IMG/VR virus record: IMGVR_UViG_3300045988_130823
Reading direction: 5' to 3' (one strand)
Source of the DNA: a virus
Length of the DNA: 37,164 nt
Of the stretch, positions 34,360 to 34,929 are shown piece after piece. Position 1 is the stretch's first letter; each line of letters opens with the position of its first letter. The notes beneath the pieces are model-generated. The model worked only from the letters and a program-made list of their open reading frames with translations. It was not told the origin of the DNA and did not search any database. Made by a program: the position numbers and the translations under genes.

Positions 34360-34377
34360 AGAAAGGAAAGATGTAAA

Positions 34378-34443
34378 ATGAAAAAAATGCTAAAGCGTAA
34401 AACCGTTGATACTCTAAGAGAGAGAGAGAGAGCTACACTTTAG
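34378..34443 (+). CDS. Putative 21-codon leader ORF containing (AG)8
   Basis: AAGGAAAG lies 7 nt before the ATG. Translation is MKKMLKRKTVDTLRERERATL. Confidence 0.35.
   Translation: MKKMLKRKTVDTLRERERATL
34417..34432. repeat. Dinucleotide microsatellite (AG)8
   Basis: Counted directly; perfect tract. Confidence 0.95.
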
Positions 34444-34470
34444 TAAAATAAAGAAAAGAGGTGTCTGTAA

Positions 34471-34929
34471 ATGATACCTCTTCAAAAGCAAATAAAAAAA
34501 ATTGTTGAAAAAATAATATTAGAAGACAATAAAAAGAAATATTATGTTGGAAAAATTATATTGGATACAGCAAATATAAATCCAGTAACATATTTAAGCT
34601 TTGGAACTTGGAAGTTATGGGGTTCTGGTAGAGTTCCAGTCGGAGTAGATGTTGATGATATAGATTTTAATGAAGCAGAAAAAACAGGTGGAGAAAAAAC
34701 ACATACTTTAACTTTAGATGAAATGCCAAAACATAATCATACTTTAAATGATGGAACTGACGGACCAGGATTGTATCCGAATTGGGGAAGTATTACTGGT
34801 TGGGGTGTTACATCAGAATATTTGAATGGAAATGGTGGGGAGTCAAATTCTGCTTATACAGGAAGTAGTACTGCACATAATAATATGCCACCATATATTA
34901 CGTGCTATATGTGGAAAAGAGTTGAATAA
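34471..34929 (+). CDS. Phage tail-collar-domain protein (baseplate / receptor-binding)
   Basis: GGEKTHTLTLDEMPKHNH...HNNMPPYITCYMWKR is a tail-collar / MdpB-like signature. Confidence 0.7.
   Translation: MIPLQKQIKKIVEKIILEDNKKKYYVGKIILDTANINPVTYLSFGTWKLWGSGRVPVGVDVDDIDFNEAEKTGGEKTHTLTLDEMPKHNHTLNDGTDGPGLYPNWGSITGWGVTSEYLNGNGGESNSAYTGSSTAHNNMPPYITCYMWKRVE

Follow-up and report, generated by a model that had tools for sequence, protein, structure and literature searches.

A variable AG microsatellite in a leader reading frame upstream of a tail-tip gene of a gut Clostridia prophage: a candidate contingency switch

The IMG/VR virus record IMGVR_UViG_3300045988_130823, a stretch of 37,164 nucleotides (nt) hereafter called the window, corresponds to a temperate siphovirus-like prophage, as judged from the order of its open reading frames (ORFs) and from Pfam and PHROG matches. 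Its GC content is 27% and its host group is an uncultured group of gut Clostridia (Clostridium sp. CAG:354 group). We focus here on a perfect (AG)8 microsatellite located in a 111-nt spacer (34360–34470) of the distal tail module, just upstream of a gene encoding a protein of 152 amino acids (aa). An earlier note, made from the letters alone, had pointed out that this simple sequence repeat (SSR) lies within a short leader ORF whose reading frame beyond the tract depends on repeat number, and had compared it with a (CA)11 cassette of the same frame logic; the latter, written (AC)n here, precedes the neighbouring 161-aa gene. The distal tail module has only two long spacers, and each contains one of the two dinucleotide tracts. 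The features of both cassettes, including the Shine–Dalgarno (SD) motifs and the predicted hairpins over the ribosome-binding sites (RBS), are as follows.

33783..33839, plus strand: leader ORF of the sister cassette (MEKAVTLGAVHTHTHTHK), in a short frame as sequenced, carrying the (AC)11.5 tract 33812–33834
33854..33893, plus strand: predicted RBS-sequestering hairpin of the 161-aa gene, in which the SD GGAGGU pairs with GCCUCU, with AUG 33874 at the apex
33874..34359, plus strand: 161-aa gene behind the (AC)n cassette, without family match, N-terminus MSEPLIL
34363..34370, plus strand: SD-like AAGGAAAG of the AG leader ORF, 7 nt before the leader ATG 34378
34378..34443, plus strand: AG leader ORF as read from the sequence, 21 codons (MKKMLKRKTVDTLRERERATL), in the short, uncoupled frame class (n = 2 mod 3)
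34417..34432, plus strand: perfect (AG)8 microsatellite found by TRF, the hypermutable element
34441..34451, plus strand: 'stop box' with TAG 34441–34443 (n = 2 mod 3) and TAA 34449–34451 (n = 1 mod 3), the third frame being open
34456..34482, plus strand: predicted RBS-sequestering hairpin of the 152-aa gene (RNAfold, 10 bp)
34472..34474, plus strand: TGA at which the long leader frame ends (n = 0 mod 3), seen in the sequence and in natural alleles, forming an ATGA overlap with ATG 34471; putative site of termination and reinitiation
34471..34929, plus strand: the putatively regulated gene, encoding a 152-aa Gp10_C-type baseplate or tail-tip knob protein (Pfam, PHROG and PDB matches)

The 152-aa protein matches the Pfam family PF21939 Gp10_C over residues 24–151 (E=2.4e-27, 97 bits for a cut-off of 27), the C-terminal domain of T4 gp10 (PDB 2fkk, E=3e-9) and PHROG tail and tail-fibre families. 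The name 'tail-collar gene' previously proposed for its gene was roughly right, the Gp10_C match making baseplate or tail-tip knob protein the more exact description. A protein identical to this product is encoded on 706 contigs and bears a name derived from Clostridium sp. CAG:354.

Direct reading of the spacer agrees with the earlier description of its length, of AAGGAAAG and the leader ATG 7 nt further on, and of the 21-codon leader with its TAG stop at 34441; the position and perfection of (AG)8 were recovered by TRF. The SSR thus sits wholly within a short upstream ORF with its own RBS, which is predicted to be accessible (opening cost of 3.1 kcal/mol for the AG leader and 2.1 kcal/mol for the AC leader, on the measure defined below). 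A motif AAGGA(G/A) is present 7–12 nt upstream of the leader ATG in all family members examined, leader ORFs of the AG family have been called as genes in many assemblies, and the leader is probably translated. A minimal start–stop ORF (ATG TAA, 34371–34376) lies between the leader SD and the leader ATG. The AG and AC tracts are the only non-AT dinucleotide runs of more than four units in the 37 kb; a first-order Markov model predicts 5.7e-5 (AG)8 runs and 1.5e-10 (AC)11 runs for the window.

The AG tract always reads as (Arg-Glu), and repeat number only fixes the frame in which a ribosome would leave it, with three outcomes:

n = 2 mod 3: TAG, starting 8 nt past the tract and 12 nt before the hairpin
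n = 1 mod 3: TAA, starting 16 nt past the tract and 4 nt before the hairpin
n = 0 mod 3: TGA after reading through the SD, overlapping the ATG of the 152-aa gene (ATGA), inside the hairpin

For the frame with one unit less, the earlier note had correctly announced a TAA stop and misplaced it at 34448 (it spans 34449–34451, and also ends the frame with two units more). The frame with one additional unit does remain open through the SD as far as the TGA overlapping ATG 34471, and the distances from tract end to gene start are indeed 38 nt for AG and 39 nt for AC. All three frame classes are realised by natural alleles: those with n=9 (L006, L015) and n=12 (L004) have leaders of 32 and 34 aa ending at the ATGA overlap, one of which was called by gene callers, and those with n=10 end at the TAA.

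The length polymorphism that the earlier note had asked for exists in nature. We retrieved the contigs encoding identical 152-aa, 161-aa or leader proteins, aligned eight copies to the window and read four more (L043–L046) at the tracts only. The eight aligned copies differ from the window by 1–8 mismatches, mostly 1–3, over 2.9–5.5 kb, and in most of them the gaps are confined to the two microsatellites. Across 12 directly read prophage copies, the AG tract varies from 8 to 12 units in single-unit steps, giving five lengths:

n=8: window, L045
n=9: L006, L015
n=10: L002, L003, L005, L046, L018
n=11: L001, L044
n=12: L004

The AC tract likewise shows five lengths in the same set of near-identical prophages (n = 9–13), and the two tracts vary independently of each other. 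AG leader ORFs called in the protein database have n=9 (3 contigs), n=12 (36 contigs) and n=15 (8 contigs). Of five Logan contigs of a related phage, four break off exactly in one of the SSRs, which fits, as an indirect indication, a branching of the assembly graph caused by read-level length heterogeneity. In L018 (tract 412–431, n=10), an 8-nt deletion just past the tract removes both short-frame stops and leads to the coupled frame; the coverage of this contig is 1.4x and the deletion may be an error.

The element missed by the earlier note is a masked RBS. The SD of the 152-aa gene (AAGAGGUG) is contained in the 5′ arm of a predicted hairpin (AAGAGGUGUC, 34456–34465), the loop UGUAAAU (34466–34472) holds the A and U of the AUG, and the 3′ arm (GAUACCUCUU, 34473–34482) corresponds to codons 1–4 of the gene; the hairpin is followed by CAAAAGCAAAUAAAAAAAA, an A-rich run without U-run. 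The isolated hairpin has an energy of −14.1 kcal/mol in RNAfold, its 68-nt context folds at −16.2 kcal/mol (z = −5.8), and the structure predicted is identical at n = 8, 10 and 12. Masking was measured as the free-energy cost of exposing positions −14..+3, and calculated for the 54 plus-strand gene starts of the window. With 14.0 kcal/mol, the 152-aa gene ranks third (median about 4), behind the 161-aa gene, which is second; the first and fourth places are taken by mechanical GTG starts that lack an SD. Across related phages, the cost is 12.8–16.9 kcal/mol in all 18 repeat-preceded genes scored and 0.6–8.9 kcal/mol at about 80 other gene starts, save two GTG starts without SD. A natural control is provided by a homolog of the 161-aa gene without leader (L033), in which CCT AGA replaces CCT CTT, the hairpin is absent and the cost falls to 1.9. 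Among the starts scored, the predicted RBS-masking hairpin is therefore exclusive to genes preceded by a repeat.

The sister cassette has the same architecture, and frame analysis bore out the same frame logic, as previously suggested. The hairpin predicted for the 161-aa gene (−17.2 kcal/mol) has an opening cost of 15.1 kcal/mol, and the (AC)11.5 tract ends 39 nt before ATG 33874. The AC tract has 7–18 units in ten IMG/VR phages with AC cassettes, and called AC leader ORFs correspond to n=10, 13, 16 and 4, with a family of long-frame leaders ending in QVVLNNKKIGGEF directly before the stop. In P0261, the AC leader allele has collapsed to about 4 units (MEKAVTLGAVHTQVVLNNKKIGGEF), which would be a locked long-frame state. 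The MSEPLIL N-terminus of the 161-aa protein is common to other small distal tail proteins. A different phage (L043, 1501–1982, with a GH25 lysin and holin_4_1) has an identical (AC)13 leader, hairpin and MSEPLIL N-terminus, followed in its 128-aa protein by a remainder unrelated to the 161-aa protein of the window; the cassette together with the N-terminal adaptor therefore marks a boundary of module swapping.

Related cassettes are present in phages that have diverged substantially from the window. Where the Gp10_C proteins are only 78–81% identical, a leader with an SSR is retained at the same place: the phage with 81% identity has an (AC)10 leader instead of AG, likewise ending at an ATGA overlap, and the one with 78% identity has a diverged AG leader (…TETVVAL(RE)n) in which a 4-nt rearrangement makes n = 1 mod 3 the long frame, ending as TAA|ATG. 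AG and AC cassettes are thus interchangeable before the same gene, and since two unrelated units do the same job there, the frame rather than the repeat sequence appears to be the signal. In other phages, AG cassettes precede genes starting with MSKPLIL or MSAPLIL and end in ATGTCTAA or TAATG. A search of IMG/VR for the exact AG core gave no matches, and a looser pattern retrieved one divergent pair (n=9 versus n=6), again ending at ATGA. Using synthetic long-frame leaders as queries (n=21 for AG), we found about 100 called ORFs of AG type and several hundred of AC type, whose long frames end with …KK(R/I)GGE… before the stop, i.e., read through the SD. At every phage junction, two frames stop soon past the tract and one ends between −3 and +8 nt from the downstream ATG, although the junction types by which this is achieved differ (ATGA, TAATG, TAAATG, ATGTCTAA). 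The stops at +8 and +16 were found in every window-type phage, in the L016/L033 phage and in every chromosomal AG cassette scored (see below); they are displaced in the rearranged L022-type (+8, +12) and L057-type (+3, +8) cassettes.

Every expectation of the earlier note at the sequence level was borne out, and its interpretation is supported. From sequence and structure modelling, we propose, with a probability of roughly 0.65, that (AG)n is a random on/off contingency switch of the Gp10_C gene operated by ribosomes that unfold the RBS hairpin. Slipped-strand mutation would alter the tract within a translated leader ORF of the late tail operon. With n = 2 mod 3, ribosomes would halt at TAG, 12 nt short of the hairpin (OFF), and with n = 1 mod 3 at TAA, 4 nt short of it (OFF or intermediate); with n = 0 mod 3 they would cross the SD and end at the UGA overlapping the AUG (ON). 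The closed hairpin (about −14 kcal/mol) over SD and AUG would allow only poor initiation by free ribosomes, and only a long-frame ribosome would unwind it and deliver a terminating ribosome at the start codon, by translational coupling. Slippage during host replication would then make lysogens heterogeneous for accessory, possibly receptor-binding, tail-tip proteins on their virions, a potential bet-hedging on adsorption and host range. The AG (n=8) and AC (n=11) tracts of the window are both in a short frame, and both tip genes are therefore predicted to be low or off in the prophage as sequenced.

Several points weigh against this model. The frame pattern by itself is weak evidence, because a pattern of two short frames and one long frame appears in 17–37% of shuffled spacers when the SD–ATG part is kept, and the phage junctions are homologous, hence not independent trials. 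Roughly one third of the directly read alleles fall in each frame class, so that about two thirds are short-frame, as a neutral repeat would give. The CCUCUU of the 3′ arm encodes the Pro-Leu common at these N-termini, and its complementarity to the SD may partly be a coding constraint. The SD of the 152-aa gene is strong and ideally spaced, so that some leader-independent initiation is likely. Finally, the TAA stop lies only 4 nt before the hairpin and could partly open it; the switch may be graded instead of binary, because a stop 4 bp upstream counts as ON in the pil1/pil3 system of Streptococcus gallolyticus, where two of three frames are ON (Danne et al., 2014, PLoS Pathog, PMC3894217).

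The allele proportions and the frequency of the frame pattern in shuffles would both be expected if the microsatellite were functionless, lying in conserved linkers that serve recombination of tail-tip modules and having no regulatory effect through its repeat number; the module swap in L043, right past the conserved leader and N-terminus, would then simply be a recombination boundary. Neutral microsatellites decay via interruptions. Here, perfect uninterrupted tracts persist across 78% protein identity and two repeat types, the SD and start codon are always retained in phase with the tract, and most AG cassettes preserve the +8/+16 stops, which are displaced in two rearranged variants. The restriction of the RBS-masking hairpin to repeat-preceded genes and the presence of a 111-nt non-coding spacer, unusual in a tightly packed phage late operon, also argue against this explanation, which we consider improbable. 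That the variation itself is an artefact, through polymerase stutter or misassembly of a low-complexity tract, seems hardly credible: dinucleotide repeats do stutter in libraries based on the polymerase chain reaction, and several contigs break at the tracts, but lengths of 8–12 and up to 15 come from independent assemblies of different studies with coverage from 5x to 109x, the two tracts vary independently between error-free flanks, and alleles recur on tens of contigs (36 for n=12).

The switch could also act on transcription or on the messenger, if long-frame ribosomes kept termination, pausing, Rho loading or RNase cleavage from occurring at the hairpin. Only 19–27 nt are left untranslated in the short frames, too few for Rho to load from what is generally known of rut sites; the phage hairpin encloses SD and AUG, with CAAAAGCAAAUAAAAAAAA and no U-run behind it, and a terminator scan of 32500–35400 came back empty. 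Moreover, anti-termination would not require the long frame to end precisely at the next start codon, as it always does in the phage. Such a mechanism is nonetheless the one suggested by the chromosomal AG relatives, whose long frame ends inside an intrinsic terminator (U6–7) before pilin-like genes, and by the published precedent, S. gallolyticus pil1, which is transcriptional (PMC3894217); we regard it as unlikely for the phage, if a little less so than the functionless repeat. Regarding polarity, ribosomes crossing the SD might occlude it, or the three frames might give three non-zero levels, as in a rheostat. A ribosome ending at the TAA would presumably melt part of the hairpin, given a footprint of about 12–15 nt 3′ of the A site, and the S. 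gallolyticus frames mentioned above (two of three ON) point in the same direction. Conversely, ATGA and TAATG overlaps are a classical signature of positive coupling, well known for instance from the trp operon, and an RBS hairpin of 14 kcal/mol would set a low basal state that read-through is likelier to activate than to repress; an inverted or graded output is in our view about as improbable as a functionless repeat.

Other candidates were rejected. A promoter-spacer model would rely on TTGATA (34406–34411) and TAAAAT (34444–34449), which are 32 nt apart at n=8, and promoter-like sites in 32500–35400 are at the shuffle level (19 found for 18.9 expected). An intrinsic terminator, found nowhere in 32500–35400 by the terminator scan, was rejected for the phage cassette and accepted for the chromosomal relatives. 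An effect of repeat length on the fold of the messenger was ruled out, the RBS hairpin being identical in the minimum free energy structures at n = 8, 10 and 12. A long-range stem around the tract (GCUAAAG.../...CUUUAGU) is not conserved in other variants by inspection and was treated as incidental. No frame joins the leader to the tail protein, the long frame being +1 relative to the gene, which excludes a fusion of the two. A search of Rfam detected no RNA family or riboswitch, even at E<=1.

Upstream of the two cassettes, the tail module comprises genes for a tape measure protein of 1002 aa, a DUF6711 distal tail protein and a 708-aa tail protein, then ORFs of 176, 82 and 121 aa. Further 3′ are the (AC)n leader with the 161-aa ORF, the (AG)n leader with the 152-aa ORF, a 112-aa ORF whose sole match is a PHROG of unknown function, and a C39/SH3 lysin. 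In a simpler relative, the 176-aa gene is directly followed by a 145-aa Gp10_C gene, without repeats; the repeat-controlled genes may therefore be accessory or alternative tip modules. We did not find a close relative among GenBank phages, the only match being of 76 nt. A G6 run (33131–33136), unusual at 27% GC, forms the SD region of the 82-aa gene within the 3′ end of the 176-aa gene; it gives no sign of variation, most of the eight aligned copies having no indels beyond the two dinucleotide tracts (this was not checked by position). Outside the tail module, a phage tRNA-Trp (anticodon CCA, 22151–22225) lies between packaging and head genes, and a 63-nt tandem repeat (2.1 copies, 79% matches, 24097–24231) is located in the stretch spanned by a 90-aa ORF (23971..24243).

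The cassette family reaches into bacterial chromosomes, which the earlier note had not seen. The 18-nt 5′ flank AAAACCGTTGATACTCTA followed by (AG)n matches exactly four times in one Hadza Clostridia metagenome-assembled genome (L010–L013, CAKOVH01), and on other contigs as well. Chromosomal AG copies (L010–L014, L017, L019, L035–L042) have n = 10–20 and lie 5′ of prepilin-like genes of gut Clostridia; the flank is identical to that of the phage in L010-type loci and diverged in L035–L039. Their leader, MQKLKTVDTL(RE)n, is preceded by a promoter-like site and has the +8 and +16 stops. The long frame extends 72–81 nt and has its stop within the loop of a strong hairpin with U6–7 behind it, i.e., an intrinsic terminator (L010, L035), and the alleles occur in both short and long frames. 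The downstream proteins have prepilin-like N-termini (N_methyl, sub-threshold), with Big_2 domains in the L010-type protein.

The flank of the tract (34400–34416 in the window; codons K-T-V-D-T-L, with the rare Thr codon ACC) is conserved at the nucleotide level between phage and chromosome, and the rest of the leader diverges. Selection on the peptide or on the RNA, a slippage-promoting CTCT/AGAG pairing or recent exchange could account for this conservation. At two chromosomal loci (L010 minus strand ~2300–2250 and L040 ~3700–3940), the pilin-like gene is split into an ORF of 59–65 aa and a main frame, and the two would be joined if an A6 run (CAAAAAACAGG) were one A shorter. A pseudogene or an assembly error could account for the split, as could a second switch based on the homopolymer. 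At L037 (4443–5229), a MutS_I fragment and a gene for bAvd, an accessory of diversity-generating retroelements, adjoin the cassette, which hints at a second diversification system nearby.

It is conceivable, at somewhat less than even odds, that the AG and AC leaders form a portable family of microsatellite-leader switches, (AG)n/(RE)n and (AC)n/(HT)n, shared by small-genome gut Clostridia and their phages, with interchangeable outputs: an RBS hairpin in the phage, and a terminator before pilin-like, Big_2-bearing surface proteins in the chromosome. If so, a phage with one to several cassettes in tandem would display its accessory tail-tip proteins in different combinations, two cassettes giving at least four virion types from one prophage, and host and phage might phase-vary the two sides of one adsorption interaction by the same device.

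In the literature searched, we came across neither leaders with dinucleotide repeats nor translational coupling under SSR control, nor any such cassette in a phage tail module, and the AG/AC leader family is apparently undescribed so far. The novelty would lie in a leader-ORF microsatellite switch whose output is the stop–start unmasking of a hairpin-locked RBS, in tandem copies within a prophage tail-tip module; if true, it would be the first case found of a phage that phase-varies tail-tip proteins via dedicated leader ORFs that carry dinucleotide microsatellites; in phages, only homopolymer tracts within ORFs have so far been described (PMC12633550 and the work on Campylobacter phages cited there). 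In metagenomes of the human gut the prophage is very common, and it would provide a natural example of virions that vary heritably there. Metagenomic reads give the repeat length directly. Gene callers mostly miss leaders of 20–35 codons, and assemblies break at the tracts. If the model is true, n mod 3 would bear on any host-range prediction made from such prophage genomes. With its small size (about 110 nt), the cassette could also serve as a stochastic switch in synthetic biology.

Classical SSR contingency loci include the CTCTT repeats of Neisseria opa, the CAAT repeats of Haemophilus lic1 and the TA repeats of hif. The AG cassette shares with them a perfect short tandem repeat, unit-step polymorphism and, as proposed here, stochastic and reversible switching of a surface or interaction protein. 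It differs from them in that the repeat lies outside the regulated ORF and also outside the −35/−10 spacer: control would be exerted through a separate upstream ORF and the protein sequence stays constant. Unmasking of an RBS by upstream translation is known from MS2, where coat translation acts on replicase and lysis, and from translational attenuation by the ermC and cat leader peptides. As in these systems, the distal SD and AUG lie in a hairpin that would be opened by translation of the upstream ORF, with a stop–start overlap; the input is constitutive translation or drug-induced stalling in MS2 and ermC/cat, and would be a heritable, reversible microsatellite frameshift here. Phages also switch tropism by other means, such as the invertible G and C segments of Mu and P1 and the diversity-generating retroelement of Bordetella phage BPP-1. 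The likely purpose is the same, population hedging between tail-tip or receptor-binding configurations, but site-specific inversion and mutagenic retrohoming need a recombinase or a reverse transcriptase, and the cassette described here needs neither.

Among phage repeats, a recent preprint scores only homopolymer SSRs (>=6 bp), most of them inside ORFs and under-represented in tail-fibre genes, and mentions poly-G tracts in receptor-binding genes of Campylobacter phages as well as T2/T4 genes with homopolymer tracts (Gomez, Barrick & Waters, bioRxiv 2025, PMC12633550). Like those loci, the cassettes combine a hypermutable repeat, heterogeneous progeny and a target in the host-recognition module; unlike them, in which the protein is truncated from within its coding sequence, they place dinucleotides in dedicated leaders ahead of a hairpin over the RBS, and a temperate gut phage carries two of them in tandem.

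The closest precedent is the pil1/pil3 system of S. gallolyticus, in which GCAGA repeats in a leader peptide decide whether ribosomes melt a premature terminator (PMC3894217). In both cases, a short leader ORF that has an RBS of its own contains the whole SSR, repeat number shifts the stop relative to a stem-loop, and a ribosome on the long leader melts the stem-loop to turn on a gene for a surface structure, this last step being proposed on the phage side. The chromosomal AG members match the S. gallolyticus layout closely, with a terminator and a pilin-like target. The two systems share no sequence similarity; the S. gallolyticus unit is the pentamer GCAGA, for which two of three frames are long, and the units here are the dinucleotides AG and AC, for which one of three is long. 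The S. gallolyticus stem-loop is a terminator behind a promoter, whereas the phage cassette lies inside a polycistronic operon and its stem-loop masks SD and AUG, with a long frame ending exactly at the AUG, which suggests coupling and not anti-termination. If this is true, leader-peptide SSR switching, of which S. gallolyticus pil1/pil3 is the only published case, would extend from transcription attenuation to translational coupling.

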